Below, piece by piece: positions 10,777-33,614 of a stretch of 64,000 nucleotides of DNA. The translations under genes were made by a program, and so were the position numbers. The DNA comes from Kiritimatiellia bacterium. Its GTDB lineage: Bacteria; Verrucomicrobiota; Kiritimatiellia; RFP12; UBA1067. The DNA lies in assembly GCA_017525225.1 (NCBI GenBank), contig JAFXTB010000048.1:8799-72798 (forward strand). Direction: 5' to 3'. Position 1 is the stretch's first letter. Each line of letters opens with the position of its first letter. The notes beneath the pieces were generated by a model. The model did no database searches. It saw only the letters and a list, made by a program, of their open reading frames with translations, and had not been told where the DNA came from.

Positions 10777-10779
10777 CAA

Positions 10780-12294
10780 ATGAATGTCTCTAGACGCTGG
10801 TTCATAGGAGGCGCGTCGTCGATCGGCGTGCTGGCGGGGTGCAGGTGCTTCAGGACGCCGTGCGCGGCGTCGGACACGGGGCCGAACCTCACCTTCGGGG
10901 TCATAAGCGACGTGCACGTGCGTCTCGCGGCCGATGGCAGGGGGATGGCGGCAAGCCACGACTGCTCGACGCTCATACATGCGTTCGAATGGTTCCGCGA
11001 CCAGGGTGCGGATGCGGTGATGATCGTAGGCGACATCGCCGACAAGGGCGTGGTGGCCGAGCTTGAGGCCGTCGCCGCCGCTTGGCAGAAGGTATTCCCC
11101 GGTTCCAAGGCGCCGGACGGCCGCAAGGTCGAGCGGGTGTTCGTGTACGGGAACCACGACTGGGAGGGCTTCAACTACGGCGATGCCATCAAGAAGCTCT
11201 ATCCGGACAAGGACGAGCTGGCCCGCAACATCCTGCGCACCGACATGAAGAGGAACTGGGAGAAGGTGTTCGACGAGCCGTACGAGCCCATCTACCGCAA
11301 GGACGTGAAGGGCTACGCCTTCATCGGGGCGCATTGGCAGGCGGACCACTGCCGGGGATGCGACGAGAAGGCGTTCGACCATGTGGGGGACTGGTTCGAC
11401 GCCCACGGCAGGGACATCGATCCCTCGCGTCCGTTCTTCTACTGCCAGCACGCGCACCCGAAGGACACCGTCTATGGCCACTGGGCCTGGGGGCATGACT
11501 GCGGCGTCACGACAAGGGCGCTCTCGAAGTTCCCGGGCGCGGTCGCCTTTTCAGGCCATTCCCACTATTCGCTCACCGACGAACGCTCCATCTGGCAGGG
11601 CGCCTTCACGTCGCTCGGCACGAGTTCGCTGCGCTACACAGGCATGGCATACGACCAGTACCCGGGCGTCGGATACGAGAACACCGGCGGTTCGCGGGAT
11701 GGCGACGTCTACAAGGTGATGAAGCCCTATTCCTCGTTCGACGGGCGCCAGGGGATGCTGGTGCGCGTCTTCGACGACTGCATGTCGTTCCGCCGCCGCG
11801 AATTCGTGACCGACCGCGTTCTGGGCGACGACTGGGTGATGCCCCTGCCGTCGGTAGAACCCAGGCCGTTCACGTTCGCCGGCCGCGCCGCCAAGGCGAA
11901 GAGCCCGGAATTCCCCGCAGGTACCGCGCTTTCCATCTCAAAGGTGCGCGCCAGGAACCGCGGCGGGTTGCCGAGGGGCGCCAAGCCCGGCAACAAGGTG
12001 CCATCCGTGGAAAAGGACGTGCTGAGACTTGAATTTCCGCAGGCTACGGCCACCCATGGAGTGCGGCCCATCGAGTACGAGCTGACGTTCAAGGCATCCC
12101 AGGGCGAACCGCTTGTCCGCCATGTCCTGGCCAACGGCTTCAACCAGTCGACCGAAGACCCGCGCACGGCCGAGAGGCAGTGCTGTGCCATCGCTTTGGA
12201 CAGGCTGCCTGCCGCGCCGTTCGGGATCGGGGTGCGGGCCGTGTCGTCGCTTGGACGCAAGAGCGCTGCGCTCACAGGGAAGTTTGAAGGTTGA
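10780..12294 (+). CDS. TAT-exported metallophosphoesterase (calcineurin-like)
   Basis: Twin-arginine motif SRRWFIGGASS. Motifs GDIADKG, GNHDWE and GHSHY match the calcineurin-like phosphoesterase signature. Confidence 0.75.
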   Translation: MNVSRRWFIGGASSIGVLAGCRCFRTPCAASDTGPNLTFGVISDVHVRLAADGRGMAASHDCSTLIHAFEWFRDQGADAVMIVGDIADKGVVAELEAVAAAWQKVFPGSKAPDGRKVERVFVYGNHDWEGFNYGDAIKKLYPDKDELARNILRTDMKRNWEKVFDEPYEPIYRKDVKGYAFIGAHWQADHCRGCDEKAFDHVGDWFDAHGRDIDPSRPFFYCQHAHPKDTVYGHWAWGHDCGVTTRALSKFPGAVAFSGHSHYSLTDERSIWQGAFTSLGTSSLRYTGMAYDQYPGVGYENTGGSRDGDVYKVMKPYSSFDGRQGMLVRVFDDCMSFRRREFVTDRVLGDDWVMPLPSVEPRPFTFAGRAAKAKSPEFPAGTALSISKVRARNRGGLPRGAKPGNKVPSVEKDVLRLEFPQATATHGVRPIEYELTFKASQGEPLVRHVLANGFNQSTEDPRTAERQCCAIALDRLPAAPFGIGVRAVSSLGRKSAALTGKFEG

Positions 12295-12319: not shown

Positions 12320-13504
12320 ATGAGACAGATCAATTGCTGGATTGTCGCGGGACTTGCGGTCGTCGCGGCTTGTGCACAGGCCCAGGATGTCGCGAAGTTC
12401 GATCCGCGCATGGCCATGGAGAAGGCCGAGATCGACACGAACGGCGTCAAGTGGATAGACGGCCGATATCTGCCGCTGGAAGGAAAGTACTTCCAGGACG
12501 TGGATAGATTCTACGACCGGCTGCCGTCTGGCGTGACGACGAACGTCAACGGGGGCGTCCGCAGCATGAAGTGCCATACGTCCGGGATGATGTTCCGTTT
12601 CCGGACCGATTCCAAGCACCTTACGTTCCGCTGGATTCCGATCTCCCCCAATCTGGCCATGGGTCACATGCCCGCGACGGGCGTATCCGGCATCGACGTC
12701 TACTGCCAGGACGCCAAGGGACGCTGGCGCTACGTGAAGACGGGTCGCATATCGGATGCGGTCAAAGGCGGTACGCTGACGATGGGCTGGACGCCCGGCT
12801 CGGCCTGCCTCGTGAACCTGCCTCTCTACAACGGCATCAAGTCCTTCTCGCTCGGCATCGACAAGAATGCCAAGGTGGAGGCTCTCGGTCCGCGCAAGAG
12901 CGGCATCGACAAGCCGGTTGTGTTCTACGGCACATCGATCACCCACGGTGGCTGCGCGTCCCGTCCGGGCATGGGCTTCGTGAACATCGTCGGCCGCGAT
13001 CTCGACGTGCCGGTGTGCAACCTCGGATTCTCCGGCTCGGGCCGCATGGAGATGGAGATGGTCGACCACCTCGCGCGCATCGACGCGAGCTGCTATGTGC
13101 TGGACTGCCTGTGGAACATGGGCACGCCCAGCACCAAGCCTGGCACCGCCTTCGACGACATGCTGGCGGCGGGGTACGACAAGAAAGATCCGATCCCGGT
13201 CGTGCGCTTTCGCTACGAGCCGTTCATCCGCGCGCTCCGCGCGAAGCGGCCGGACGTGCCGATCGTCATGGCGGAGCAGTGCGACGTGTTCTGCGGCGAG
13301 AAGAGCGTCAAGAACAAGTTCGTGCGCGCCCTCTACGAGAAGCTCGTGGCGGAAGGCTGGAAGAACCTCGTTTACCTTCCCAACGACACGATGTATTCAG
13401 GCGACGGGGAAGGCACCGTGGACGGCTGCCATCCGAACGACCTCGGCATGATGTCGATGGGCAAGGCCTTCGGCAAGGCGGTGCGCGAGGCGTTGAAGCT
13501 GTAA
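12320..13504 (+). CDS. secreted SGNH/GDSL-family hydrolase (carbohydrate or sialate O-acetylesterase-like)
   Basis: Signal peptide MRQINCWIVAGLAVVAACAQA. VVFYGTSITHGG (GDS-like block I) and DGCHPND (block V DxxH). AAGGAG SD 7 nt upstream. Paralog of 30046..31146. Confidence 0.75.
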   Translation: MRQINCWIVAGLAVVAACAQAQDVAKFDPRMAMEKAEIDTNGVKWIDGRYLPLEGKYFQDVDRFYDRLPSGVTTNVNGGVRSMKCHTSGMMFRFRTDSKHLTFRWIPISPNLAMGHMPATGVSGIDVYCQDAKGRWRYVKTGRISDAVKGGTLTMGWTPGSACLVNLPLYNGIKSFSLGIDKNAKVEALGPRKSGIDKPVVFYGTSITHGGCASRPGMGFVNIVGRDLDVPVCNLGFSGSGRMEMEMVDHLARIDASCYVLDCLWNMGTPSTKPGTAFDDMLAAGYDKKDPIPVVRFRYEPFIRALRAKRPDVPIVMAEQCDVFCGEKSVKNKFVRALYEKLVAEGWKNLVYLPNDTMYSGDGEGTVDGCHPNDLGMMSMGKAFGKAVREALKL

Positions 13505-13529
13505 CCGCCACTGGCAGGGAGTGAGTGAC

Positions 13530-16500
13530 ATGGCAAGACCGATCTTTCTGGCCGCGGCCGCCATCATGGCCATTGTTTCCGTGTACGCCGCCGAAGGGCA
13601 GGCGTGCAAGGGCCGTACGCCGGCCGAGGCATATCGCGCCAACATCGCAGCCGGAATGAAGACGCCAGAGACGTCGCGTCTTTTCGAGAAGTTCACGGAT
13701 CCCGTGTCGGGTGTGGTATCCTACATCCTGAAGCCGGGATCCATCGCCTTCAACCAGCAGACTACGTACTTCACGGCGAAGTCGATGACGGACGACGGGC
13801 GATTCCTCGTGTTCCATGCGGCGGACGACGAGTTCCCGCCCGAAAAGCAGGGCCAGCGCGTCCCCGTCAGAAAGCGCAAGGTGCTGATCGACTTCCTCAA
13901 GGACGAAGCCATCGATATCGGAGCGGGCGGCGGGATACCTTTTCTCGACACCGCAACCGACCAGATGTGGTACACCGACAATCAGGGTCTGCACCGGCGC
14001 GACTTCCTCGTCAACCCCACGAACGATGTGCTCGTCTGCACCTGGCCGCCGGAGCTGGCGCCAAAGCGCACGGGCGGCAGGTACGGAACGCACATAACGT
14101 TCTCGCCCGACCGGCGGTTCATGTTCATGGATACCACCATCGACGGACAGGACGTGGAGGGCGTCGTGGACACGGCCACCGGCAAATGGATCGAATGGGC
14201 GCGCTCCAACTTCCTCTGCAACCATGGGCAGTTCAACCCGAAGGATCCCACCCTCGCCATGTGCGCCTGGGAGAACGCCTGGCAGAAGGTACGCGACGAG
14301 ATGACGCCCGAGGAAATCGCCAAGGCCACGTTCACGAGACGCTTCGTCAGTGACATCCGCCGCGACTCCGACGACGTATATCCCCGCCTCTGGCTCATGC
14401 GCCAGGGGAAGAAGTGGGAAGTGACCTCTAAGATCACGGGCTATGCTACGCACGAATATTTCGCGGAGGACGGCAAGGGCTTCTACTGGTGTTCGAGCGG
14501 CGTGAGCTACCATGATCTCGCCACGGGCCGCGAATGGCGCATCAACCCAGTCGGCTCCGCGCACGCGACGATGACGGCCGACAACAGGTACATAGTCGCG
14601 GACTGTAGCTGGGGTGGCTGGTGGCGCGGCTGCGGCTGGACGGTACATTTCTGGAATCGCGATACCCACCGCGCGGTATACGTCCATTCCTGCCGTCCGC
14701 GCATCGCCTCCAAGGCCAACGAGAGCAAGCTACATCCCGACCCCCATCCGCATTTCGCCTGCCTCGACCGTTACATCATTAGCACCTTCAACGACGAAGA
14801 GCGCCGTATGAACGTGTCGATCACGCCCGTGGAGCAGCTGGTGAGGATCACATCCGATCCTGCCACCGCGCCCAGGCCGAAGACCTTCCCGCTCGCGTTC
14901 GACCCTGCCTCGCGCACGGACGCCACGTACGAGATGGAGATCGACGTGAAGTCGCTCAAGGACCGCAAGTTCGTCGCATCGCCGCCCTGCACCGTCGGCG
15001 CCGACAGCTACACGCCGTTCGCGCTCAGGGCGGTTGTCGGCGGCAAGGAGGGGCCTCTGCCGTTCGAGGCCGTGCAGGGAAGCGACTTCAAGCGGAACGT
15101 AGTACTGCGCTTCAAGCTGCCGAAGGGCGTCGAGAAGCTCTTCTGCGTGGCCGACGCCCCCGGCCGCTTCGAATACTACGATTCGGAATCCTGCGCCAAC
15201 ATCTTCGCGCATGCCTACGAGCATGAAAACTTGGGCCGCTGGACCTGCGGGACCGGAGTGGAAGGGTCCACGCACCGCGCAGGGCTCGTGTTCACGCGCA
15301 CGGCGGCGGATGGCGATGCGTTCCCGGGTGCGGCGTACACGGCCGATCTGCCCGATGGCGTGGCAGGACGCGACTTCAAGTTCGAGCTGAACCTGAACAA
15401 CCTCGGCGTGTCCGAATGGTGCGGCGGCATCCGCATGCAGCAGCTGGATGCCTCCGGCGCCGAACTCGGCGACGCATTCAACGGCCGCGGGCTGACGAAG
15501 ACCATCGCCCCCGGCAGGCGCCGCGAGTTCCGCCTGACGGGCCGCATTGCCCCGGCCGCGAGGAAGGTGCGCCTGGAGATTGGTCTCAAGTCTAAGGATG
15601 GCAAGCCGGCCAAGGTGCTTGTATGGAGGATGAACCTGCGCGAGGCGACGGTATTCCCGTACACACCTCCCGCAGATGTCACAATGAAGACGCCGGAGAC
15701 GTCGAAGAATTTCGTCAAGCGCGTGGACAAGCGCACGAAGCTGACATCGTACGTGCTGAAGCCCGGGCTCGTGGACGACAGCCAGCAGAGCTGGTACTTC
15801 ACGGCGAAGTCTATGACCGACGATGGACGTTTCCTCTTCTTCTGGGCGTTCAAGAACGAGAACAAGCCGCAGACAGGCAAGCGGATGGCGTACGTCGATT
15901 TCCTTGACGATACCGTCCACACCACCGACATCATGGAACTTCCTTTCCAGAAGCCTTTCCTTGACGTGGAGACGGACCGCCTATACTACATCCGCCGCGA
16001 TCCGGACAGAATATGCCGCCGGGACTTGCTCTCCGACCCAGAGAAGGAGATCACGATGGCGATGATACCGGAACGCTTCACGCGGCCTGGCGTCAAGGTG
16101 AGGTACTACTGTACCCACCTTACGCTCACACGCGACAGGCAGAAGGCGTTTCTCGACGTCGGCCTGACCGAAGGCGGAAAGGATACGTACGAGCAGGGGC
16201 TTCTCGATCTCAGGACAGGCCGGTGGGAGAAGTGGACCGAGACGGATTTCTTCTGCAACCACGGCCAGATATGCCCTACGGACGACGCTCTCGCGCTCTG
16301 CGCATGGGAAAGATGCTGGAAGAAGACGGTGGTGTCGAATGGTGTACCTGTTGAGATCGACCGTCCGAAGGACGAGCCGTATCCCCGCGTATGGCTCCTG
16401 CGTGCGGACGGCACGAAGCGGAACATACTGCCGGAGGAGTTCAACTACGCCACGCACGAGCACTGGCAGACGGACGGCAAGGGCATCATGTGGTGCTGCT

Positions 16501-18011
16501 CCAACGGGCTCTACGGCTACAATCTCGGCGAGGACCGCCAGTACTGCATAATGCCGTTCGCCGCAGGGCACGCCACCATGACCGACGGCAACCGGTACGT
16601 TGTCACGGACTATCCTGTCGGCGGCTGGTACCGTGGCTGCAACTGGCAGACCGTGTTCTACGACCGCATGACGGGCAAGGTGGTGTTCCCGCACTACAAG
16701 AACGACAGGCTGTGCCCCGATGACGGCGGAATGCACAACCACCCCGATCCGCATCCGCAGTTCGTCTGCCGCGATCGCTACATCGTGAGCACCATCAACA
16801 TGGCCGACGGCCACATGGATCTTTCCGTCACGCCTGTCGGGCCGCTCATGGACCGCACGCGCTTCGCGACGGATTCCGGCGGACATTCGCGCAACTTCTG
16901 GTTCGACGCCCTGCCGAAGGAGGCTTCGCCGATGGAAGTGGGCGGACGCATCGTCAGGCAGTTCCTGTCGTCCCCGCCCGACGCCTACTTCCCGAAGGGT
17001 GCGACGGCGCTTCACGCCAGGGGGTACGTGCCGTACGCAATAGTGAGTACATGGGCGAACGCGATCGAATACGCCTCGCGCACGCACAACGCGTATCTTG
17101 AAACGCGCCTTGCAGATCTCTTCAAGCCGTTCACCGGTCCGAAGAAGAACGAGTGTTCGCGTCCGGACCACGTGGACTTCTCGATATTCGGCGCGGTGCC
17201 GATGTCCGTGGCGCGCCTCACGGGCGACAAGACGCTGCGCAAATTCGGCCTGGACTATGCCGACAGGCAGTGGACGCGTCCCGCGGGTCCGGAGGACGTG
17301 CGCATCTCGAAGAACGAGGTGGACGTTCCGTACGAGGAGCGCCTGAGGCTCTTCGACCAGGGCTACACGGCGCAGACGCGCTTCTGGATCGACGACATGT
17401 ACATGATCACGGTGCTGCAGACGCAGGCCTATCTGACCACTCGCGACAGGAAGTACCTCGATCGCGCCGCAAAGGAAATGTGCCTCTATCTCGACCGCCT
17501 GCAGCTCAAGGAGGGCAGGGCGAAGGGGCTGTTCTACCATGCGCCGGACGTCCCGTACGTCTGGGGGCGCGGAGCTGGCTGGATGGCTGGCGGCATGGCG
17601 CTGCTGCTGAGGCACCTGCCAGAGGATTCCGAATACCACGCGCGCATCACGGCCGGGTACAGGTCGATGATGGAGGCGCTTCTCAGGTTCCAGCGCGCCG
17701 ACGGCATGTGGGGGCAGCTTGTGGACGAGCCGGAGAGCTGGGCCGAGTCCTCGGGGTCGGCCATGTTCACCTCGGCCTTCATCGTCGGCGTGCGCCGTGG
17801 CTGGCTCGACATGAACGCATACGGACCTGCCGCGCGCAAGGCATGGCTCGCCCTCTGCCGCCGTCTCGACCGCTACGGCAACATTTCGGACGTCTGCATG
17901 GGCACCGGCAAGAAGAACGACCACCAGTACTATCTCGACCGTCCGCGCCTCAACGGCGATCCCCACGGACAGGCGCCGATGCTCTGGTGCGTCAACGCCA
18001 TGTTGGAATAG
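13530..18011 (+). CDS. giant secreted multidomain enzyme: two PL22-like oligogalacturonate-lyase beta-propeller domains + C-terminal GH88/GH105-like unsaturated glycuronyl hydrolase
   Basis: Internal duplication (MKTPETSRLFEKFTDP...YILKPG...YFTAKSMTDDGRFL twice). Both copies carry FxCNHGQ and HPDPHP(H/Q)F resembling the Ogl/PL22 THPHPSF region. C-terminal FWIDDMYMITVLQTQAY and (alpha/alpha)6-like sequence resemble YteR/UGL. Start ATG 13530 (AGGGAG 9 nt upstream) rather than GTG 13521. Confidence 0.7.
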   Translation: MARPIFLAAAAIMAIVSVYAAEGQACKGRTPAEAYRANIAAGMKTPETSRLFEKFTDPVSGVVSYILKPGSIAFNQQTTYFTAKSMTDDGRFLVFHAADDEFPPEKQGQRVPVRKRKVLIDFLKDEAIDIGAGGGIPFLDTATDQMWYTDNQGLHRRDFLVNPTNDVLVCTWPPELAPKRTGGRYGTHITFSPDRRFMFMDTTIDGQDVEGVVDTATGKWIEWARSNFLCNHGQFNPKDPTLAMCAWENAWQKVRDEMTPEEIAKATFTRRFVSDIRRDSDDVYPRLWLMRQGKKWEVTSKITGYATHEYFAEDGKGFYWCSSGVSYHDLATGREWRINPVGSAHATMTADNRYIVADCSWGGWWRGCGWTVHFWNRDTHRAVYVHSCRPRIASKANESKLHPDPHPHFACLDRYIISTFNDEERRMNVSITPVEQLVRITSDPATAPRPKTFPLAFDPASRTDATYEMEIDVKSLKDRKFVASPPCTVGADSYTPFALRAVVGGKEGPLPFEAVQGSDFKRNVVLRFKLPKGVEKLFCVADAPGRFEYYDSESCANIFAHAYEHENLGRWTCGTGVEGSTHRAGLVFTRTAADGDAFPGAAYTADLPDGVAGRDFKFELNLNNLGVSEWCGGIRMQQLDASGAELGDAFNGRGLTKTIAPGRRREFRLTGRIAPAARKVRLEIGLKSKDGKPAKVLVWRMNLREATVFPYTPPADVTMKTPETSKNFVKRVDKRTKLTSYVLKPGLVDDSQQSWYFTAKSMTDDGRFLFFWAFKNENKPQTGKRMAYVDFLDDTVHTTDIMELPFQKPFLDVETDRLYYIRRDPDRICRRDLLSDPEKEITMAMIPERFTRPGVKVRYYCTHLTLTRDRQKAFLDVGLTEGGKDTYEQGLLDLRTGRWEKWTETDFFCNHGQICPTDDALALCAWERCWKKTVVSNGVPVEIDRPKDEPYPRVWLLRADGTKRNILPEEFNYATHEHWQTDGKGIMWCCSNGLYGYNLGEDRQYCIMPFAAGHATMTDGNRYVVTDYPVGGWYRGCNWQTVFYDRMTGKVVFPHYKNDRLCPDDGGMHNHPDPHPQFVCRDRYIVSTINMADGHMDLSVTPVGPLMDRTRFATDSGGHSRNFWFDALPKEASPMEVGGRIVRQFLSSPPDAYFPKGATALHARGYVPYAIVSTWANAIEYASRTHNAYLETRLADLFKPFTGPKKNECSRPDHVDFSIFGAVPMSVARLTGDKTLRKFGLDYADRQWTRPAGPEDVRISKNEVDVPYEERLRLFDQGYTAQTRFWIDDMYMITVLQTQAYLTTRDRKYLDRAAKEMCLYLDRLQLKEGRAKGLFYHAPDVPYVWGRGAGWMAGGMALLLRHLPEDSEYHARITAGYRSMMEALLRFQRADGMWGQLVDEPESWAESSGSAMFTSAFIVGVRRGWLDMNAYGPAARKAWLALCRRLDRYGNISDVCMGTGKKNDHQYYLDRPRLNGDPHGQAPMLWCVNAMLE

Positions 18012-20001: not shown

Positions 20002-21189
20002 ATGTTCAAAAGACATCTCAAGACAGGGCAGAGATCGGCCGTCGCTGTAGCGGCGGTGTCCGCGGCCATGCTTCTGCCTGCCGGTGAACTGCCGGTCGTC
20101 GACCTGAGCGGCGATGCCAGCCGGCATGCCGTCATCGCCGCCGGAACGGAAAAGGACTACCAGGGACATCCGACGACGGTGCTGACGCCGGACGGACGCA
20201 TCATCGCCGTCTGGTGCACGCCTCACGGCGGATGGTGTGGCCCGGCGGCGGAGAGCGCAGATGGCGGGAAGACATGGACGCGCATAGACGGCCGTTTCCC
20301 GGAGGGTTTCCGTCGCCATGTGAACTGCCCGAGCATATACCGCCTGGAAGGCCCCGACGGCAAGGCGCGGATCTGGACATGGAGCCAGGTGAAGATGCCG
20401 CCAGACGCGAAGGACCATGACGACCACCGCGAGCGGGGCGAGCCGATGCCGTCCGTCATGAGCGAGGACGAAGGGCGTACGTGGAGGGAGATGCCGCCCT
20501 TGGGCGCGAAGTTCCGCTGCGTGATGGCCTTCGCCTCCATCGTGCGCCTGAAGGACGGTTCGTACCTCGGCATGTTCCACGCCGGTCCCGGTGGCGCCGA
20601 TAGGCCGCCTCTCAAGGTCTGGCAGTCCGTCACAAGGGACGGAGGATTCACATGGAGCGATCCCGTCCTCGTGGCGTCCGTAGAGGGCAAGAACCTATGC
20701 GAGCCTTATGTGTTCCGTTCGCCGGATGGCGGCGAGCTTTGCTGCCTCATGCGCGAAAACACGCACAAGGGGTGTTCGATGATGATGTTCTCGCAGGACG
20801 ACGGCCGCACATGGTCGGTGCCCGAGGATTCTCCCTGGGGGCTCACGGGCGATCGGCATCAAGGTGTTCAGCTGCCCGACGGGCGGTTCGTGGTGGCGTT
20901 CCGCGACATGGCGCCGAAGTCGCCGACGCGCGGGCATTTCGTTGCGTGGGTTGGACCCTACGCCGCGATCAGATCACGCGAGAAGAAGGGTACCTATCGC
21001 ATCAAGCTGCTTCACAACTATGCCGGCGTGGACTGCGGCTATCCCGGTATACACCTCCTGCCGGACGGCACCATCATCGCGACGACATACGTCAAGTACT
21101 GGAACGACGCCAGGCAGCAGTCGGTAGTCTCCACGCGCTTCCGGGTGGAAGAGACTGACAGGCGCATCATGTTGCAAACCGGTCCATGA
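20002..21189 (+). CDS. secreted BNR/Asp-box repeat sialidase-like glycoside hydrolase
   Basis: Four Asp-boxes ([32 protein letters not shown]), signal peptide [37 protein letters not shown]. No clear RIP motif, so the sialidase assignment is moderate. Confidence 0.65.
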
Positions 21190-21200
21190 TGGTGTATAAT
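21172..21200 (+). promoter_or_regulatory. sigma70-like promoter TTGCAA-17-TATAAT upstream of the mutarotase-symporter gene
   Basis: TTGCAA 21172-21177, 17-nt spacer, TATAAT 21195-21200. Confidence 0.5.
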
Positions 21201-21234
21201 GCCGTCCGTGTCAGTTGTCCAAGAGAGATTCAAG

Positions 21235-23817
21235 ATGAAGATGGCGTTGTCTGCGAGGTACGGCGTACTGGCGTTCGCCGGTGCATGTCTTTCCACCTGC
21301 CTCTGGGCGCATGTGGAGCTGAACTGGGGCGAGGAGTTCCTTCTGCCGCCATTGGACGGCAGACCCAACGTGGGCGTGGCAAGGCCCTTCGCGGGCGTTT
21401 CCAACGGACGCGTCCTTCTTGCCGGCGGCGCGAACTTCCCGGTGAAGCCGCTCATCGAGGGCGGCCCCAAGGTCTACCATGACGAGATCTGGAGCTTCGA
21501 TCCGTCGGCTGCGAAGCCGGCATGGGAGCTTTCGGGACGTCTGCCCATGGCGCGCGGGGAAGGTGCGTATGCGACCGTGCCACAGGGCGTGGTGTGCGTC
21601 TCCGGCGCGATCGGTGCCGACGGCAAGGCGCTCACGAACGGATGCTTCCTCATGCGCTGGGAAGGCGGCCAGGTGCAAGTTTCCGACCTGCCGCCATTCC
21701 CCGAGCCGGCGAGATACGCGGCCGCCGCCTCGCGAGGCTCCAAGGTGTATGCGGTAGGTGTCCGCAAGGTGGCGTCCATCGACCTGGGCGACGCGAATCC
21801 GCGGTGGACTTCGCTACCCGACCTCCCGGAAGAGGTGTTCCAGCCTGCATGCGCCGTGCAGAACCTCTCGCACCAGCGCACGGGGCTTTTCGTCTTCGCG
21901 GAGCACGGGAAGGACAAGCTTTCCGGCGGATGGTTCCTGGATCTCGCCCCGGATGCCGCCGCAGGCTGGCAGCCGGTCCCCGACGTCCCTGCGGACGGAC
22001 CTCTCGGGGACCGCAAGTTCGTAGGTTCGCTCGCGCTCGCCTCTGGCGACCAGCACATACTCTTCTTCGGCGGCACCAGTCGAGGCCCGGCGCGTGAAAG
22101 CGAAGGCAAGGGACGCGACTGGTACCTCAATCATCCGCCGGAATGGTTCCGCTTCCCGAAGGCCGTGCTTGTCTACCACACCGTCACCGAGCGCTGGTTC
22201 ACGCTGGCGGAGACTCCGTTCCCGGGCCGCGCCGGGGCCGCGCTCGTGGCGCTGCCCGACGGCCGCATCCTGCTGCATGGCGGAGAGATCGGCCCTGGCA
22301 CGCGCACGCCTCGCGGCGCGATCGGCGCCTTCGCGCGCACGAAGGGGTGGCATCCGGTCAACTATGCGGTGGTGGTGCTGTATTTCGCGGCCATGGCCGG
22401 GATGGGGTTCTGGTTCATGCGGCGCAACAGGTCTTCCGACACGTACTTCAAGGGTGGCGGCCACATCCCGTGGTGGTTCGTCTCGATGTCCATATACGCC
22501 ACGATGCTCTCGTCGATCACCTTCATCTCGATCCCGGCGCTGGTGTACCTAACGGACTGCCGCTATTTCGCGATCACGTTCGGCATACTCATACTCGCGC
22601 CGATAGTCACGCGCTACTATCTGCCGTTCTTCCGCCGGCTCAACCTCACGAGCGCGTACGAGTACCTGGAGGTGCGCTTCAACCTCGCATGCCGTCTCTT
22701 TGCGTCGGCGGCGTTCATCCTCTTCATGGTCGCGCGCACGGCGATAGTCACGTACCTTCCGGCGATCGCGCTTTCCGCGGTCGTGGATGTGGACGTCAAC
22801 CTGTCGATCGTGCTGGTGACCGCGGTGACGATCCTCTACTGCACGCTTGGCGGCGTGGAGGCCGTCATCTGGAGCGATTTCGTGCAGTCGCTCATCCTGA
22901 TACTCGGAACGCTGATGATATACGCATACCTCGTGTGCGGCACGGAAGGGGGGCTGGGCGGCTTCATCGCGATGGGCGCGGCGGCGGAGAAGTTCAGGGT
23001 GTTCGATTTCACTCTCGACTGGTCGAAGCCCGTGTTCTGGGTGGTGTTCGTGGGCGGAGTGGTGGCGAATCTCGCGTCCTACACCTCCGACCAGTGTGTG
23101 GTGCAGCGTTACATGACCACGAAGGACGAGCAGGGCGCGGCGCGCTCGATCCTCTTCAACGGCGTACTGTCCTTCGTCAACAGCATGGTGTTCTTCACGC
23201 TGGGCGTGGCGCTCTGGACGTTCTTCCGCTCCAACCCCAGCCTCCTGGAGGTGACGATGCCGAAGAACGATTCAGTGTTCCCCCTCTTCATCGGCGGCGT
23301 GCTGCCTGTCGGCGTGTCGGGGCTGATACTCGCCGCCGTGGCGGCGGCCACGATGAGCACGCTCTCCGCGAACCTCAACAGCGCGGCGTCGGCCTTCACC
23401 ACCGACTTCTTCGCGCGCCTGGGCAGGAACGTGTCCGATGCCGCCAAGCTCCGCTGCGGACGCATCGCCACCATCGTCACGGGTCTTCTGGGGGGCTTCT
23501 TCGCGCTGGTGCTGGCGAACATGGAGATACACTCGATCTACGACCAGTTCCAGAGGTTCCTCGGAATCCTGACGGGCGGACTCGGATGCCTCTTCTTCAT
23601 GGGCATATTCATGAAGCGCGTGACACCCGCCGGGGCGACGGCCGGGCTTGTGGCTAACTACGCGGTCTGCTTCGCGCTCGACCAGCTTTCGTTCCCGCAC
23701 AAGCCGCATCTGCTGCTCTTCGGCGCGCTGGGCATGGTCGCGTGCCTGGTGGTGGCGCCGCTGGTGAGCGCGCTGACGCGCGGGCCGCAGACCGATCACC
23801 CGCGTACCGGCCCGTGA
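21235..23817 (+). CDS. fusion protein: periplasmic kelch-type sialic-acid mutarotase (NanM/cyclically-permuted mutarotase-like) + sodium:solute symporter (SSS, SiaT-like)
   Basis: Signal peptide MKMALSARYGVLAFAGACLSTCLWA. N-terminal ~370 aa is kelch/galactose-oxidase-like with repeated GG..GG blocks. C-terminal ~500 aa has 13 or more TM helices with SSS-family character. Start ATG 21235, since the track start 21199 overlaps the -10. Confidence 0.7.
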   Translation: MKMALSARYGVLAFAGACLSTCLWAHVELNWGEEFLLPPLDGRPNVGVARPFAGVSNGRVLLAGGANFPVKPLIEGGPKVYHDEIWSFDPSAAKPAWELSGRLPMARGEGAYATVPQGVVCVSGAIGADGKALTNGCFLMRWEGGQVQVSDLPPFPEPARYAAAASRGSKVYAVGVRKVASIDLGDANPRWTSLPDLPEEVFQPACAVQNLSHQRTGLFVFAEHGKDKLSGGWFLDLAPDAAAGWQPVPDVPADGPLGDRKFVGSLALASGDQHILFFGGTSRGPARESEGKGRDWYLNHPPEWFRFPKAVLVYHTVTERWFTLAETPFPGRAGAALVALPDGRILLHGGEIGPGTRTPRGAIGAFARTKGWHPVNYAVVVLYFAAMAGMGFWFMRRNRSSDTYFKGGGHIPWWFVSMSIYATMLSSITFISIPALVYLTDCRYFAITFGILILAPIVTRYYLPFFRRLNLTSAYEYLEVRFNLACRLFASAAFILFMVARTAIVTYLPAIALSAVVDVDVNLSIVLVTAVTILYCTLGGVEAVIWSDFVQSLILILGTLMIYAYLVCGTEGGLGGFIAMGAAAEKFRVFDFTLDWSKPVFWVVFVGGVVANLASYTSDQCVVQRYMTTKDEQGAARSILFNGVLSFVNSMVFFTLGVALWTFFRSNPSLLEVTMPKNDSVFPLFIGGVLPVGVSGLILAAVAAATMSTLSANLNSAASAFTTDFFARLGRNVSDAAKLRCGRIATIVTGLLGGFFALVLANMEIHSIYDQFQRFLGILTGGLGCLFFMGIFMKRVTPAGATAGLVANYAVCFALDQLSFPHKPHLLLFGALGMVACLVVAPLVSALTRGPQTDHPRTGP

Positions 23818-25569: not shown

Positions 25570-25598
25570 TTGCTTTCGCGCAAGTGGTAAGGTATACT
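25570..25598 (+). promoter_or_regulatory. sigma70-like promoter TTGCTT-17-TATACT in the divergent region between pssA and the TolB-like gene
   Basis: Hexamers read directly. CAGGAG SD then ATG 25629. Confidence 0.4.
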
Positions 25599-25628
25599 AT
25601 GCTGACAACCACCCAAACAGGAGTCTAC

Positions 25629-26789
25629 ATGTCCAACAAAGCATTTCTACTGTCCATAGCGCTCTGCGCCGCCGTCGGCGCCGCGCCTGTCCCCAACGCC
25701 GTCGTCGAGAAGGCCGGCGCCGAACGCATCACAGTGTCCGTGGCGACGCCGCCCGGCGCCTACACCTCGTCGCTCAAGCGGAACCTGCAGATATCCGGCT
25801 GGTTCACGCTTGCGGGCGAAGGCGCGGCCATAAAGGTGTCCGGCACGCCCGGGGTGTCGGTGACGGCCACGGGGCGCGGCAAGACGATCACCGCTACCAC
25901 CGCGTTCCAGGACGACCGCGGTGCGCGCATGGCGGCGCGCAGGTTCGTGGACACGATGGTGAAGGAGTTCTCGGATGGCGGCAGGGGCTTCGCCACGACG
26001 CGCCTGGCGTTCGTCAACCGCAAGGGGCCGGACAATGCCGAGCTGTACACCTGCTATCCCGACGGCTACGACATCCGCCAGATCACGAGCGACGGCTGCG
26101 CCGCGGTGGGGCCGCGCTGGGCGCCTGACGGGGAGACCATCTACTACACCAGCTTCATCCACAAGTTCGGCAACGTGTTCCGCATCAACGCGTCCGCCGG
26201 CCAGCGTCCGGTGCCGCTGGCGCCCTTCAAGGGCACGGCGACCGGGGCCGCCATCGCGCCGGACGGTAACCGCTGCGCGATCGTCCTTTCCTACGAGGGC
26301 AATCCGGAGCTCTACGTGATGGATATCGCATCGCGGAGGATCAAGCGCATGACCAATACGCCCGCCGCCGCCGAGGCCTCGCCGTGCTGGAGCCCGGATG
26401 GAACCAGGATCGCGTACGTGTCCGACCAGAGCCGCCATCCGCAGGTATACATCCTCGACGTCGCGTCGCGCAGGTCAGTGCGCTTCACGAACAAGGGAAG
26501 CGAGAACACGAATCCGGACTGGAACGCCGACGGCAAGCTCGTGTGGGCATCGAAGCGCCAGGGGCAGACGGTGCTGATGGTCGCCGACGTCGCGGCGGGT
26601 GAAGGGGCTGCTCGTGCGGTCACCACGCCCGGCAGCTGGGAACATCCGTCCTGGGCCGCCAACGGCCGCCATGTGGTGGCATCCCGCGACAAGGCGCTCT
26701 TCCTCGTCGACACCGATCCTGACGCCGACAAGCCCGTGCAGCTCTTCCACAACAAGGGCAACTGGATGAATCCGGCGCTCAGCCGCTGA
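25629..26789 (+). CDS. TolB-like periplasmic beta-propeller protein (PD40 repeats)
   Basis: Signal peptide MSNKAFLLSIALCAAVGA. Repeated WAPDGETIYYTS / IAPDGNRCAIV / WSPDGTRIAYVS PD40 blocks. Confidence 0.6.
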   Translation: MSNKAFLLSIALCAAVGAAPVPNAVVEKAGAERITVSVATPPGAYTSSLKRNLQISGWFTLAGEGAAIKVSGTPGVSVTATGRGKTITATTAFQDDRGARMAARRFVDTMVKEFSDGGRGFATTRLAFVNRKGPDNAELYTCYPDGYDIRQITSDGCAAVGPRWAPDGETIYYTSFIHKFGNVFRINASAGQRPVPLAPFKGTATGAAIAPDGNRCAIVLSYEGNPELYVMDIASRRIKRMTNTPAAAEASPCWSPDGTRIAYVSDQSRHPQVYILDVASRRSVRFTNKGSENTNPDWNADGKLVWASKRQGQTVLMVADVAAGEGAARAVTTPGSWEHPSWAANGRHVVASRDKALFLVDTDPDADKPVQLFHNKGNWMNPALSR

Positions 26790-30045: not shown

Positions 30046-31146
30046 ATGGCAGAGGGAACGGCATCTATCCTGGTCGCATGTGCGATAAGCGCCATGGCGT
30101 TCGCCAGGGCGCCGTGGAAGTCGGACATGCCCGACAAGGATTTTGTCTGGTTTGATGGTTCGCAGCTTCCGCTCGAAGGCAAGGGGTTCAAGGCCGCCGG
30201 CGGGGACCTCTACGCCAGGCTGCCCGCCGAACTGCGCGCAAGGCCCGATCTGGAAAAGATAAGGGGCATGGCCAGGAACTCGACAGGCATCAATTTCAGG
30301 TTCAAGACGGATTCCGACCTCATGCGCATCCGCTGGTCGTTGGCGAACGACCCGCCCTACGGCAGCGGTGCCTCCACCGGCCTTGCGCATTCCGGCATAG
30401 ATGTCTATTCATGGTTCTCCTGCCACGGCTGGCGCTTCTGGCAGAACGACTTCCCGCGCGGACGCACGAACACGCTGGACGTGGTCTGGAAGCCGGGTAG
30501 GGCCTGCACGGTCTATCTTCCGCTCTTCAACAAGGTGGAATCGTTCTCGATCGGAATAAAGAAGGGGACTTCCATCTCCAGGGCGAGGGCGCATGCGCTA
30601 GACAGGCCGGTTGTGGTGTACGGCACGTCGATGGTCAACGGTTACAGCTCGTCGCGCCCGGGAACGTTGTGGACGTCCATCCTGGGACGCATGCTCGACG
30701 TGGAGATCGTCAACCAGGGTTATTCCGGCAACGGCAAGCTTGAAGAGTCCATGCTGGAATTTCTCGGCGGCATCGACGCGGCGGCGTACTGCTTCCTGTG
30801 CTGCGGCGAGCAGCATACCATCGAGACGATGCGCGCCCTGTACCGCCCGTTCCTGGAGCGTCTCCACAAGCGGCGTCCCTCTGTGCCCATAGTCCTCGGC
30901 GAATACTACTACGTGCACGGACGGAACGCGTTCGCGTTCGACAATCCGAAGCGCGACTTCATCGCCGACCTGGTCGCGGAACTCAAGGAAAGCGATCGGG
31001 AGTTCTGGAAGAACCTGTACATCGTCCGTGCCAGCGACATGACGACCCCGGAAGGAACCTTCGACATCGTGCATCTGAACGACATAGGCGCGCAGAAGAT
31101 GGCCGAAGCGTTTGCCGATGCCCTGCGCCGCGCCCTTGACCTGTAA
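30046..31146 (+). CDS. SGNH/GDSL-family hydrolase paralog (NanS-like O-acetylesterase candidate)
   Basis: Paralog of 12320..13504: VVVYGTSMVNGY, HLNDIG (DxxH-like), same N-terminal beta-sandwich region. AGGAGG SD 9 nt before ATG 30046. Track start 30007 overlaps the upstream gene. Confidence 0.7.
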   Translation: MAEGTASILVACAISAMAFARAPWKSDMPDKDFVWFDGSQLPLEGKGFKAAGGDLYARLPAELRARPDLEKIRGMARNSTGINFRFKTDSDLMRIRWSLANDPPYGSGASTGLAHSGIDVYSWFSCHGWRFWQNDFPRGRTNTLDVVWKPGRACTVYLPLFNKVESFSIGIKKGTSISRARAHALDRPVVVYGTSMVNGYSSSRPGTLWTSILGRMLDVEIVNQGYSGNGKLEESMLEFLGGIDAAAYCFLCCGEQHTIETMRALYRPFLERLHKRRPSVPIVLGEYYYVHGRNAFAFDNPKRDFIADLVAELKESDREFWKNLYIVRASDMTTPEGTFDIVHLNDIGAQKMAEAFADALRRALDL

Positions 31147-31172: not shown

Positions 31173-31202
31173 TTGCGGATTCATGCGGGAATTTGGTATA
31201 AT
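31173..31202 (+). promoter_or_regulatory. sigma70-like promoter TTGCGG-18-TGgTATAAT, 7 nt before ATG 31210 (leaderless-type)
   Basis: TTGCGG 31173-31178, TATAAT 31197-31202 with upstream TG, ATG 31210. Confidence 0.5.
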
Positions 31203-31209
31203 GGCCCAC

Positions 31210-32106
31210 ATGAAAACCAAGAAACTTGAAGGGTTGGTCGCAGCGGCGCATACGCCGTTCGCGAAGGACGGTTCGGTGGACGTGGATCAGGTGCCCCGCC
31301 AGGCGGCGGCGCTCCTGAAGCAGAAGGTGATCGGCGCATACGTGTGCGGCACCACGGGCGAGGGCATATCCTGCTCTGTCGAGGAACGCAAGGCTGTGAT
31401 GGCGGCCTGGGCGCGCGCGGCGAAGGGGAAGCTCTTCCTCATCGCACACACGGGCGCGCTCGGCCTCACCGACGCGCAGGAGCTGGGGGCGTACGCCGAG
31501 GAGCTCGGATATGACGCCGTATCGGTGGTGCCGGCAAACTACTTCAAGCCTGGCTCCGTAGCGACGCTCGTCGACTACCTCAACGCCGCGCTTGAAGGCT
31601 GCCGCAATACGCCGTTCTACTACTACCACACCGGCATGAGCGGAATCCATCTCGACATGCAGCAGTTCCTCGAGAAGGCCGACGGCCGCATCCCCAACCT
31701 TGCCGGCATCAAGTTCAACTATCCCGACCTCTACATGTACCAGCGCTGCATGCGCTGCTGCGGCGGCAAATACGACATCACGTGGGGGATCGACGAATGG
31801 TTCGCTGGCGCAGTGGCCTGCGGCGCGAAGAGCGCCATCGGCTCCACATACAACTACGCCGCCCCGATATACACCCGCATAGCCGAGGCCGTGCGAAAGG
31901 GCGACCTGAAGGCGGCCGAGAAGGGCATGAAGAAGGTGTGCGACATCGTGGACATCCTCGTGCAGTACGGCGGCGTGGCCGCCGGCAAGACGATGATGGC
32001 CGTGCACGGGATGGACCTGGGCGACGTTCGCCTGCCGTGCGTGCCGCTTACGGCGGCGCAGAAGGCCGACTGCATCGCGCGACTCCGCAAGATAGGCTAC
32101 CGCTGA
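31210..32106 (+). CDS. N-acetylneuraminate lyase / dihydrodipicolinate synthase-family aldolase
   Basis: GTTGEG motif, Schiff-base lysine context AGIKFNYPD, 299 aa. Context: downstream of SGNH esterase, with sialidase and mutarotase-symporter nearby. Confidence 0.7.
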   Translation: MKTKKLEGLVAAAHTPFAKDGSVDVDQVPRQAAALLKQKVIGAYVCGTTGEGISCSVEERKAVMAAWARAAKGKLFLIAHTGALGLTDAQELGAYAEELGYDAVSVVPANYFKPGSVATLVDYLNAALEGCRNTPFYYYHTGMSGIHLDMQQFLEKADGRIPNLAGIKFNYPDLYMYQRCMRCCGGKYDITWGIDEWFAGAVACGAKSAIGSTYNYAAPIYTRIAEAVRKGDLKAAEKGMKKVCDIVDILVQYGGVAAGKTMMAVHGMDLGDVRLPCVPLTAAQKADCIARLRKIGYR

Positions 32107-32123: not shown

Positions 32124-33614
32124 ATGGGTATCGCAGGAGCCGGCAGGGCACTCGCCCTTGCCATAGCGGTGGCGGCGCTTGCCGCCGCCGGACATGGAGC
32201 TGTAGGCGCTCAGGACGTGATTCCGGGCGGCTGCGCGGCGTTCTCGCCGGACGGTCGGAGCATCGCGTTCCAGCGCGAGCGCGGCGACTGGTATGATCTC
32301 GTGGTACGCGACATCGCAACCGGCGCGGAGACCGTGATCGAGACAGGCGGGCCTTTCCGCGCCGGCCAGCCCGCATGGGGGCCGGACGGTTCGCTCGCCT
32401 ACATACTGTGTCCCGCCACGAACACCGCGTTCGAGGCGGCGGTCGCGAAGAGCGAGGACGGCTGCAACATCTGGCTGTGGAAGGACGGGGCCAGGCGTCG
32501 CCTCACGTGGGGACGCTTCCGCGATTCGACGCCGTCGTTCGGTCCCGACGGCCTAATCTACTTCGCCTCGTCGTTCCCCGACGGGAAGAGGGGGCTGCCG
32601 GCCCTCTTCACGGTCGATCCGTCGAAGAATGGTGCCGACGGCCGTCCGGAGAGGAAGGTGATATACAAGGCGCCGGCGATGCATTCGACGGGCGTGTCGC
32701 AGCCGACGGTCTCTCCGGACGGCAGGCTGCTCGTCTGGGCGGAGCTCGACGACTTCGAGGATGTATGGCATATCTGCGTATCCCGCGCGTCCGACACCTC
32801 CAAGGCTCAGCGGCTGACATCCTTCGGCGTGTGGGCGTACGCGCCCAGGTGGTGTCCGGATTCGCGCCACCTCGTATGCACCGCGTTCCGCGCGGGCGAT
32901 GAATCGTGGGGCGTGTTCACGGTGGACGTGCGCACGGGCGCGATGGCGCGCCTCTTCACGGGCGAGGAGCCGTCCGTATCCCCCGACGGACGCAAGCTCG
33001 TCTATGAACGCGACGGGGGAATACGTTTCGTGGACATGAAGCCGGAGTTCCTTCCGTCCGGCGACGTCTGCGGGAGGAAGGTCAGCGACGAGCCGGAACG
33101 CGTACTCCTTTCGCGCGGCGACATGGATAACAAGACGATTGTCGCCCTCGACGATTCGCTCAAGTTCGGCGCCGACCGCACGTTCTTCGTGCGCGCTGAA
33201 TTCGACTACGACGGCGATGCCTCGCTCTACCAGGACGTGGCGCGCGGAGCCTACGAAGAGAGCTCTCTCGGATTCAACCTCTATCTCGCCAAGGGGATTC
33301 CGCACTTCGGTACGCGCGACATCCGCAACCAGCACTTCCGCGTGTATTCCGGCGCGAGGTTCAGGAAGAGACACGGGGTCCTCACGGGCATACGTACGCG
33401 CGACGCCCTCTACCTGTACGTCGAGGGCGACGCCGATGGCGACAGGCTCTATTCCAAGGGCATGAGCCGCGGCGCGATCGCGCTCGACCACCCGAAGCAG
33501 ATGGTGGTGGGCGGCACCTTCAAGCCCAAGAGCCGCGTGCGAAAGATCGAGGTGGGCACGGGCTGGCCAGCCAACGTCCCGCAACCGTTCAATGGAGAGG
33601 AGCTCTTCAGATGA
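32124..33614 (+). CDS. secreted PD40/TolB-like beta-propeller protein with a C-terminal beta-sandwich-like domain (cassette copy 1)
   Basis: Signal peptide. AFSPDGRSIAFQRERGD, WGPDGSLAY, VSPDGRLLVW, VSPDGRKLVY PD40 blocks. GGGGAGG SD. Paralogs at 34812 and 42388. Confidence 0.65.
   Translation: MGIAGAGRALALAIAVAALAAAGHGAVGAQDVIPGGCAAFSPDGRSIAFQRERGDWYDLVVRDIATGAETVIETGGPFRAGQPAWGPDGSLAYILCPATNTAFEAAVAKSEDGCNIWLWKDGARRRLTWGRFRDSTPSFGPDGLIYFASSFPDGKRGLPALFTVDPSKNGADGRPERKVIYKAPAMHSTGVSQPTVSPDGRLLVWAELDDFEDVWHICVSRASDTSKAQRLTSFGVWAYAPRWCPDSRHLVCTAFRAGDESWGVFTVDVRTGAMARLFTGEEPSVSPDGRKLVYERDGGIRFVDMKPEFLPSGDVCGRKVSDEPERVLLSRGDMDNKTIVALDDSLKFGADRTFFVRAEFDYDGDASLYQDVARGAYEESSLGFNLYLAKGIPHFGTRDIRNQHFRVYSGARFRKRHGVLTGIRTRDALYLYVEGDADGDRLYSKGMSRGAIALDHPKQMVVGGTFKPKSRVRKIEVGTGWPANVPQPFNGEELFR

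Follow-up and report, generated by a model that had tools for sequence, protein, structure and literature searches.

We examined a 64,000-nucleotide stretch of the Kiritimatiellia bacterium contig JAFXTB010000048.1, hereafter the window, and focused on two adjacent genes (Table 1). The first encodes a protein with a BNR_2 domain. The second, a siaF-type gene that we refer to as siaF, encodes a mutarotase-like propeller joined to a sodium:solute symporter (SSS). Both open reading frames (ORFs) lie where an earlier model-made reading of the letters alone, the sequence-only reading, had put them (20002-21189 and 21199-23817, + strand). The G+C content of the window is 61-68%. A strong Shine-Dalgarno sequence, GGAGGAGG, lies ahead of the BNR_2 gene ATG. 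The spacing between the two genes, which share a strand, is 10 bp, or 45 bp if siaF starts at Met13. The 872-codon siaF frame has zero internal stops, including at the domain junction. An identical 872-residue protein is encoded on independent contigs of two samples, with the same neighbour genes, and full-length fused homologues of 82% to ~30% identity occur in hundreds of genomes. Hence, neither a frameshift nor faulty assembly accounts for the in-frame fusion described by the sequence-only reading.

The N-terminal half of the protein is related to the mutarotase NanM. In Pfam, the 872-residue protein matched NANM (PF24996, N-acetylneuraminate epimerase/mutarotase) with 81 bits, compared with a gathering cut-off of 45. 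JGI names the homologues 'cyclically-permuted mutarotase family protein'. The sole PDB match to the N-terminal 400 residues was E. coli YjhT/NanM (2UVK), in two order-swapped pieces; query residues 306-371 correspond to NanM 153-217 and residues 56-159 to NanM 240-345. We doubled the mature part of NanM from E. coli MG1655 and searched it with a hidden Markov model of the family N-terminal domains. A single wrap-around alignment resulted, spanning profile positions 43-391 and running from NanM residue 240 round to 224 (133 bits, E = 5.6e-43). Since doubled NanM aligns end to end, sequence comparison identifies the domain as a complete, cyclically permuted NanM propeller rather than a generic kelch scaffold. 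Consistent with this, Foldseek matched the N-terminal half to six-bladed kelch propellers. In the AlphaFold2 (AF2) model, beta-strands extend across residues 39-380 and the predicted local distance difference test (pLDDT) score is mostly above 90.

Within the propeller, Glu363 and Arg369 align to Glu209 and Arg215 of mature NanM. Amongst 70 fused homologues, Glu363 is invariant and Arg369 is at least 90% conserved. The pair is kept in nearly all fusions across phyla, including those of Kiritimatiellae, Bacteroidota, Planctomycetota and Acidobacteriota. The propeller is preceded by a leader, MKMALSARYGVLAFAGACLSTCLWA followed by HV, called heuristically as a hydrophobic N-terminal helix that is also present in the AF2 model. 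The leader peptide proposed earlier is therefore retained. Homologues align to the protein from approximately residue 13 onward.

The C-terminal half is an SSS transporter. Pfam SSF (PF00474) matched residues 416-818 with 149.5 bits, and NCBIfam TIGR00813 (sss) scored 234 bits, above its cut-off of 184. When residues 381-872 were compared with the PDB using phmmer, the best match was the sialic acid transporter SiaT (5NV9, E = 2e-94), followed by vSGLT (1e-43). Foldseek aligned the transporter half with SiaT (5NVA) at a template modelling (TM) score of 0.90, a root mean square deviation of 2.6 A and 34-35% identity. The AF2 model has thirteen membrane helices, beginning at residue 386, with TM1 and TM6 broken as in LeuT-fold carriers. 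These helices superpose on SiaT and the N-terminus is predicted, heuristically, to be periplasmic (N-out/C-in). For the whole chain, modelled from a 70-sequence alignment, the pLDDT was 88.9 and the predicted TM score (pTM) was 0.89. Hence, the fused 13-helix symporter of the sequence-only reading is borne out, and a linker of five residues connects it to the propeller. This short linker, together with the pTM of 0.89, argues that the propeller would be held rigidly on the periplasmic face of the transporter.

We compared ligand-binding positions with those of SiaT. Briefly, SiaT contacts N-acetylneuraminic acid (Neu5Ac) directly via Thr58, Ser60, Thr63, Gln82 and Arg135, whilst Phe78, Gly81, Phe243, Asn247 and Gln250 make water-mediated or N-acetyl contacts (PMC5931594). 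Of these residues, F78, G81 and F243 form the N-acetyl pocket, and T58, Q82 and Q250 are ligands of the glycerol tail (PMC5931594). The Na2 site comprises Ala56, Leu59, Ala339, Ser342 and Ser343; the Na3 site comprises Asp182, Ser342, Ser345 and Ser346 (PMC5931594). Ser60, Thr63, Arg135 and Gln82 are each mutationally essential and S346A is tolerated (PMC5931594). In the siaF protein the carboxylate clamp is intact; Ser438, Thr441 and Arg513 are equivalent to SiaT Ser60, Thr63 and Arg135. Among the relatives examined, the Ser60 and Arg135 equivalents are invariant and that of Thr63 is nearly so (Ser in a few). The Na2 site is kept (Ala434, Leu437, Ala717, Ser720 and Thr721, where Thr replaces SiaT S343), as is the Na3 site (Asp560, Ser720 and Ser723, with Ala724 replacing SiaT Ser346). 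Equivalents of SiaT Asp182 and Ser342 are conserved in the siaF protein and in every relative examined. In summary, Proteus mirabilis SiaT (5NV9/5NVA; Wahlgren et al. 2018, PMC5931594) and the siaF protein share a LeuT-fold SSS domain, the clamp and both Na+ sites. Conversely, SiaT has no fused domain, and the siaF protein differs from it at six pocket residues and by S343T and S346A.

Severi et al. 2021 (Microb Genom 7:000614, PMC8461474) have already described the same fusion architecture under the name SiaF, as a clade of ST5 transporters. As published, SiaF has a leader peptide, a cyclically permuted NanM propeller and an N-out/C-in SSS domain of 13 transmembrane helices; members come from Bacteroidetes and Planctomycetes/Verrucomicrobia, with enrichment in gut communities (PMC8461474). 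The rationale, to feed the beta-anomer straight into the transporter, had also been proposed (PMC8461474). Hence, neither the fusion nor the coupling rationale put forward by the sequence-only reading is new, and its interpretation of the fusion is essentially that of the field. Severi et al. 2021 do not mention the Kiritimatiellae by name (PMC8461474). The siaF gene is a further, ordinary member of an architecture that was published in 2021 and is widespread. As in the published clade, its product has the leader, the permuted NanM propeller, the N-out/C-in 13-helix SSS domain and the pocket residues of gut Bacteroidales. The SSS half probably belongs to the ST5 SiaF clade; SiaT is by far its best PDB match, and the pocket is identical to that of Prevotella and Bacteroidaceae fusions. 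Unlike the SiaF genes described in 2021, the window copy is Kiritimatiellae-type, lies outside a nan cluster with the nearest NanA-like gene 7.4 kb away, and is adjoined by a non-canonical BNR_2 gene.

The fusion is conserved; fused homologues number at least 70 among close relatives and hundreds among more distant ones. In a search of 5.8 billion proteins, fused homologues ranged from 82% to ~44% identity, and those with names were all from Kiritimatiellae/Kiritimatiellia metagenome-assembled genomes (MAGs). A scan of one genome per species gave at least 597 matches to the fusion in several phyla. Full-length fusions were found in Kiritimatiellia, Prevotella/Bacteroidaceae/Rikenellaceae, Flavobacteriaceae, Cytophagia and Saprospiraceae, and also in Planctomycetota, Verrucomicrobiota, Bryobacterales/Blastocatellia, Rhodothermales, KSB1 and Hydrogenedentota. 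Sheep ileum and colon are the sources of the closest named genomes; these, and sample labels such as XIEF21 and WILK20, hint at a ruminant-gut origin.

Two other systems provide useful comparisons. E. coli NanM/YjhT (2UVK) is also a periplasmic six-bladed kelch propeller; the homology spans its full length and the motif GE(A/I)(K/G)PG(L/T)RT is shared. However, NanM is a soluble homodimer, whereas the siaF domain is tethered and permuted, starting at approximately mature residue 240 and wrapping to approximately 224. The NanM-NanZ (ST4) fusions of Akkermansia, from the Verrucomicrobia lineage, independently join an N-terminal periplasmic NanM to a sialic acid transporter (PMC8461474). In these the transporter is of the MFS type and there is an extra helix; in the siaF protein it is an SSS.

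Taken together, a continuous ORF, full-length homology of both halves, residue conservation, a confident model and a wide distribution point to a SiaF-type importer that carries a tethered mutarotase and takes up sialic acid, or a close ulosonic acid, coupled to Na+. We give this interpretation a probability of roughly 0.8. The product would be a single inner-membrane polypeptide, with a periplasmic permuted NanM propeller directly atop a SiaT-like Na+/sialic acid symporter (ST5). Catalysis, substrate, Na+ stoichiometry and channelling are predicted here by homology. Glycosidase action would first provide the free alpha-anomer of sialic acid, or of a close nonulosonic acid, in the periplasm. 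The Glu363/Arg369 site of the propeller would then speed mutarotation from the alpha- to the beta-anomer. The outward-open transporter would bind the beta-anomer by its carboxylate, via Ser438, Thr441 and Arg513, and carry it inward with two Na+ at the Na2 and Na3 sites described above. Once in the cytoplasm, the sugar would be cleaved by the NanA-like lyases whose genes lie elsewhere in the window. The weakest step is release, which may be due to the secreted BNR_2 propeller.

The value of this assignment lies mainly in annotation: host or microbial sialic acids are likely to be consumed by this gut-type Kiritimatiellae bacterium, by way of a transporter class that is itself predicted. A broader question, posed in 2021, is whether tethering NanM channels the beta-anomer to the transporter. 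With its very short linker, the siaF sequence is a reasonable construct for studying channelling, but offers nothing beyond the SiaF proteins of Bacteroides and Prevotella. Repeated decay of the mutarotase domain in Kiritimatiellae, and a GH33-like family without the RIP Arg, are of modest evolutionary and enzymological interest.

Table 1. Features of the siaF locus and candidate partner genes (positions are those of the window; aa, amino acids; TM, transmembrane)
Feature	Positions	Strand	Length or residues	Basis or remark
BNR_2 gene	20002-21189	+	395 aa	secreted GH33-related six-bladed propeller; putative 'sialidase-like', non-canonical
Predicted signal peptide of BNR_2 protein	20002-20082	+	aa 1-27	basic N-terminus and hydrophobic stretch; heuristic
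BNR_2 propeller body	20092-21144	+		four Asp-boxes (aa 85, 154, 211, 264)
siaF-type gene	21199-23817	+	872 aa	NanM mutarotase domain (N-terminal) and ST5/SSS sialic-acid-type Na+ symporter
N-terminal leader/signal-anchor helix	21199-21309	+	aa 1-37	AF2 helix 5-34, low pLDDT
Six-bladed kelch propeller, cyclically permuted NanM domain	21313-22338	+	aa 39-380	Pfam NANM, 2UVK match, family hidden Markov model, AF2
GGEIGPGTRTP motif (Glu363, Arg369)	22279-22311	+	aa 361-371	aligns with NanM NGEAKPGLRTD
Linker TKGWH	22339-22353	+	5 aa	AF2; last propeller strand (372-380) to first TM helix (from 386)
SSS (LeuT-fold) transporter domain, 13 TM helices	22354-23778	+	aa 386-860	phmmer, Foldseek, AF2; SiaT-like
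Unwound TM1	22498-22521	+	Ala434, Leu437 (Na2 carbonyls), Ser438, Thr441 (carboxylate), Met436	maps to SiaT 56-63
Substrate-carboxylate salt bridge	22735-22737	+	Arg513	SiaT Arg135; invariant in all relatives examined
Na3 site Asp	22876-22878	+	Asp560	SiaT Asp182, by mapping onto SiaT
TM8 Na+ ligands	23347-23370	+	Ala717, Ser720, Thr721, Ser723, Ala724	SiaT A339, S342, S343, S345, S346
NanA-like aldolase, candidate cytoplasmic partner	31201-32106	+		7.4 kb downstream; Pfam DHDPS; best NCBIfam model NanA PRK04147, 170 bits, below cut-off of 281
Second NanA-like aldolase	60521-61585	+		36.7 kb downstream; DHDPS family; best NCBIfam model NanA PRK04147, 171.8 bits, below cut-off of 281

The sequence-only reading took the BNR_2 gene for a sialidase-like gene. 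Its product matched Pfam BNR_2 (PF13088) with 73.6 bits, against a cut-off of 31.4, and had no match in NCBIfam. AF2 returned a six-bladed propeller (pLDDT 91.4), with a pLDDT below 50 for residues 1-24. A signal-peptide-like or hydrophobic N-terminus is present in most of the 3265 relatives detected. The best Foldseek match was Dfer_1899 of Dyadobacter fermentans (5HX0; E = 1.6e-16, TM score 0.62-0.68, 17-18% identity), the nearest solved structure, which is of unknown function and provides no functional guidance. GH33 sialidases followed, with TM scores of ~0.55-0.6 and 13-18% identity, alongside a pseudaminidase and GH93 enzymes. PDB matches from phmmer and profile searches were short, blade-shifted sialidase fragments and were dropped for catalytic mapping. 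We used a global hhalign comparison of the BNR_2 family profile with RIP-motif GH33 genes located beside SiaF in other phyla; the families aligned collinearly with 98.5% probability.

In this alignment, invariant Glu234, Arg251 and Tyr347 correspond to the GH33 Glu, second Arg and nucleophilic Tyr, respectively. Arg310, conserved in 20 of 35 sequences, corresponds to the third Arg. The (F/Y)RIP motif is absent; the sequence reads Y53-Q54-G55-H56-P57 and the RIP Arg aligns to invariant Gly55. The GH33 acid/base Asp, ~25 residues past RIP, aligns to Pro74, beside invariant His75, in a loop where alignment is less certain. Family-invariant residues at the propeller centre are G55-H56, H75, H106, E234, R251, D284-R285-H286 and Y347. 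Hence, compared to the GH33 exo-alpha-sialidases of Micromonospora viridifaciens (1EUR) and Porphyromonas gingivalis (8FEB), the protein shares six blades, four Asp-boxes, the Glu/Tyr pair and two Arg residues, but has neither the RIP Arg nor the acid/base Asp, and TM scores are low. The protein is therefore GH33-related. Because two defining GH33 features are missing we do not file it as a sialidase, a label that is unproven.

Three observations concern the wider family. First, some BNR_2 relatives (P0154, P0159, P0160, P0162 and P0123) are fused to a YhcH/YjgK/YiaL domain (PF04074) or to an alpha/beta-hydrolase. E. coli YhcH (NanQ) is a Neu5Ac anomerase. From their domain content, such fusions are suggestive but not decisive. 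Second, versions of ~550-580 residues with an extra domain also exist. Third, an ORF at approximately 10419-10802 of a Bacteroidales MAG contig (JBKGZA010000104.1, our locus L069) combines a canonical GH33 N-terminal part with a window-type BNR_2 C-terminus. The N-terminal part has YRIP, the Glu, two Arg residues and Asp-boxes; the C-terminal part has GDRH...AFRD...DCGYPG. The join falls behind an Asp-box, and an extra blade is implied; the ORF may be either a natural hybrid or a chimera produced in assembly.

We next consider whether the BNR_2 gene and siaF act together. The closest orthologue of siaF (82% identical) directly follows apgM (86% identical), and its contig has no BNR_2 match. 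Relatives at 66%, 66%, 62% and 62% identity have no adjacent BNR_2 gene either, and in two of them a NanA-like gene abuts siaF. In all, five close relatives besides the 82% orthologue are without a BNR_2 gene between apgM and siaF. Fusions of 58% and 47% identity have other BNR_2 subfamilies, and DHDPS or HpcH aldolases, beside them. Of 84 fusion loci, 8 have a window-type BNR_2 gene near the fusion, whereas 45 have a NanA-like gene within 10 kb, mostly directly adjacent as judged from coordinates. RIP-type GH33 genes lie near SiaF in ~19 loci. By gene order, adjacency of BNR_2 and siaF is specific to their own lineage. Hence, the compact unit for release, mutarotation and import that the sequence-only reading envisaged is not conserved as a three-step module. 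The counts of 45 and 8 identify the NanA-like lyase, not the window-type BNR_2 propeller, as the most general genomic partner of SiaF.

One alternative is that the BNR_2 gene is a lineage-specific insertion beside siaF, neither a sialidase nor a functional partner, so that no such unit exists. Direct joining of apgM and siaF in the 82% orthologue, the relatives without an adjacent BNR_2 gene and the 8 of 84 loci are all consistent with this. So are replacement of the RIP Arg and acid/base Asp by invariant Gly55-His56 and Pro74-His75, and the unknown function of the nearest solved structure. Conversely, the genes share a strand across a gap of 10 bp (45 bp from Met13), both products are predicted to be exported, and GH33 catalytic positions are occupied by invariant Glu234, Arg251 and Tyr347. 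Some BNR_2 relatives are fused to alpha/beta-hydrolase domains or to the YhcH family (PF04074), to which the NanQ anomerase belongs; other subfamilies adjoin the fusions of 58% and 47% identity, and RIP-type GH33 genes occur in the ~19 loci noted above. On balance, insertion is a strong contender that falls a little short of even odds, and functional coupling of siaF to the BNR_2 product is at best slightly favoured.

Several points weigh against import of sialic acid by a mutarotase-transporter. In the propeller, NCBIfam TIGR03548 ('cyclically-permuted mutarotase') scored 120.9 bits on residues 57-372, below its cut-off of 243; for the 872-residue protein, TIGR03547 scored 73.6 bits against a cut-off of 256. 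Mutation of NanM Glu209 or Arg215 reportedly abolishes mutarotase activity, and the putative catalytic role of Glu363 and Arg369 draws on this and on conservation. In the transporter, SiaT contacts to the N-acetyl group and glycerol tail are replaced (T58M, F78Y, G81I, Q82T, F243G and Q250S), and Gln82 is essential in SiaT. The residues concerned are Met436, Tyr456, Ile459, Thr460, Gly620 and Ser627. The genomic context is that of housekeeping genes rather than a nan cluster, with apgM upstream of siaF. No nanE, nanK, nanR or AGE-like gene was seen within the window. Similarly, no E. coli-type nanE, nanK or nanS was found near the 84 fusion loci, which is uninformative for Bacteroidetes-type pathways. 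Sialic acid pathways of the Bacteroidetes type use AGE and ROK enzymes. Experimental evidence on SiaF was 'very scarce' according to Severi et al. 2021 (PMC8461474), and we found no later functional study of any SiaF in the literature.

We had considered the altered pocket as a mark of an unusual substrate. This was dropped because SiaF proteins of gut Prevotella, Bacteroidaceae and Rikenellaceae share it. Using SiaT numbering, the pocket M58, Y78, I/M81, G243, N247 and S250 recurs in fusions of gut Prevotella, Bacteroidaceae, Alloprevotella and Rikenellaceae, and position 82 varies within the fused clade (S/T/A/C/M). Hence, as judged from alignment, the substitutions are a trait of the whole fused clade that separates SiaF from SiaT and are not peculiar to the siaF protein.

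Even so, the same machine could carry another acidic 2-keto-3-deoxy sugar, such as ketodeoxynononic acid (KDN), N-glycolylneuraminic acid (Neu5Gc), legionaminic or pseudaminic acid, or ketodeoxyoctonic acid (Kdo), with the BNR_2 enzyme as the matching glycosidase. The transporter shares with SiaT just the clamp and Na+ sites; the N-acetyl pocket and glycerol-tail ligands are replaced and position 82 varies. The window has no genes for processing N-acetylmannosamine. More distant fused paralogues lie beside an HpcH/HpaI aldolase and sugar dehydrogenases, the BNR_2 protein is without the RIP Arg and acid/base Asp, and its structural neighbours include a pseudaminidase. However, Severi et al. place the gut Prevotella, Bacteroidaceae and Rikenellaceae SiaF proteins, which have the same pocket, in nan clusters (PMC8461474). 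NanM homology is full length with the Glu/Arg pair intact, and aldolases adjacent to fusions keep the NanA tail-binding signature, Asp191-Glu192-Ser208. Both aldolases in the window carry the NanA signature (Y137, K165, G189, D191-E192 and Ser/Thr208), with S208 in that encoded at 31201-32106. This enzyme is 61% identical to an aldolase beside a Thermoguttaceae SiaF; the second is 49-55% identical to aldolases abutting siaF in other Kiritimatiellia. We consider a different cargo unlikely, though less so than the remaining alternatives. Neu5Ac specifically, as the cargo, is favoured by a modest margin over even odds.

A distant fused paralogue, 47% identical to the siaF protein, was noted at our locus L006, on the contig with P0098. 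Its pocket has Lys81, Cys82 and Cys247. Neighbouring genes encode a BNR_2-hydrolase fusion, an HpcH/HpaI class II aldolase, GFO/IDH/MocA, a short-chain dehydrogenase, an aldo-keto reductase and an AraC regulator. These features hint that this subclade may have a different 2-keto-3-deoxy acid substrate.

A more specific proposal concerns the BNR_2 protein itself, whose window-type family is widespread in Kiritimatiellae and Planctomycetes. It may represent a GH33-derived enzyme family in which invariant His56, His75 and His106 take the place of the RIP Arg and acid/base Asp, whilst the nucleophilic Glu/Tyr pair is retained. Such enzymes could have an ulosonic acid other than Neu5Ac as substrate, or work by a modified mechanism, and the Kiritimatiellae SiaF subclade, whose tail and N-acetyl pocket is altered, would import the product. 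We regard this as speculative and improbable. If true, BNR_2 and SiaF would together form a scavenging route of the ruminant gut that resembles sialic acid scavenging but is distinct from it.

Amongst Kiritimatiellae relatives of siaF, the mutarotase domain seems to have undergone repeated decay. Two classes were recognised amongst P0049, P0060, P0070 and P0073 (~585-620 residues) and P0104, P0105, P0118 and P0120 (485-499 residues). In one class, a signal peptide and a remnant of ~100 residues, equating to the last two propeller blades, are left and the GGE..PG.R motif is lost. In the other, the N-terminal domain is wholly absent. Across the SSS half both classes are 65-76% identical to the siaF protein, closer than many intact fusions.

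Such decay raises the prospect that the propeller is not an enzyme but, as a tethered domain, binds substrate or gates the transporter in the manner of a fused binding protein, or serves as a structural cap. The transporter is retained when the domain is reduced or lost, and the enzymatic role of fused NanM domains is a prediction. However, conservation of the Glu/Arg pair and its surrounding motif extends across Kiritimatiellae, Bacteroidota, Planctomycetota and Acidobacteriota, and what the remnants have lost is exactly the GGE..PG.R motif. This loss suggests that selection on the motif may be tied to an intact propeller. We conclude that a non-enzymatic propeller is very improbable and continue to favour a tethered mutarotase.

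That sequencing, assembly or gene calling joined two separate genes is barely conceivable given the continuous frame, the identical protein from two samples, the hundreds of full-length fused homologues and the confident single-chain model; we found no support for it and the sole uncertainty is the exact start codon. The annotated siaF ATG (21199) has no obvious ribosome-binding site. In-frame ATG codons at 21235 and 21241, with AAGAGAGA ahead of them, would yield a more typical signal peptide. Hence, the start may be mis-called by 12-14 codons and the true start may be Met13 (21235) or Met15 (21241). This would shorten just the tail ahead of the signal peptide and leaves the main conclusion unaffected. 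A sigma-70-like -35/-10 pair, TTGCAA-17-TATAAT, lies within 21172-21243 and overlaps the BNR_2 gene end and the annotated siaF ATG at 21199. Scans for sigma-70 promoters and terminators gave consensus-level matches only, to a consensus of doubtful relevance in this phylum.

Downstream of siaF are genes for a radical-SAM-like protein, a CDP-alcohol phosphatidyltransferase, a TolB-like protein, a purine nucleoside phosphorylase and a dihydroorotase. Carbohydrate-active genes are scattered among the housekeeping genes. Elsewhere in the window, two genes (12320-13504 and 30046-31146, +) encode carbohydrate esterases with GxDLY and SGNH (Lipase_GDSL_3) domains. We do not claim them as sialate O-acetylesterases; they have no similarity to NanS and no NCBIfam match. 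The gene at 13521-18011 (+) encodes 1496 residues, with two tandem repeats of ~650 residues, each containing HPDPHP(H/Q)F and matching nothing in Pfam, followed by a C-terminal GH88 domain, an unsaturated glucuronyl hydrolase. Four genes encode TolB/PD40-like propellers (25584-26789, 32124-33614, 34812-36302 and 42388-43851, +). Of these, only 25584-26789 resembles true TolB (203 bits, below the cut-off). Three further genes (37714-42060, 45161-49558 and 54624-59135, +) encode proteins of ~1450-1500 residues, two with PATR (passenger-associated transport repeat) and otherwise without family matches. These may be large surface or secreted proteins.

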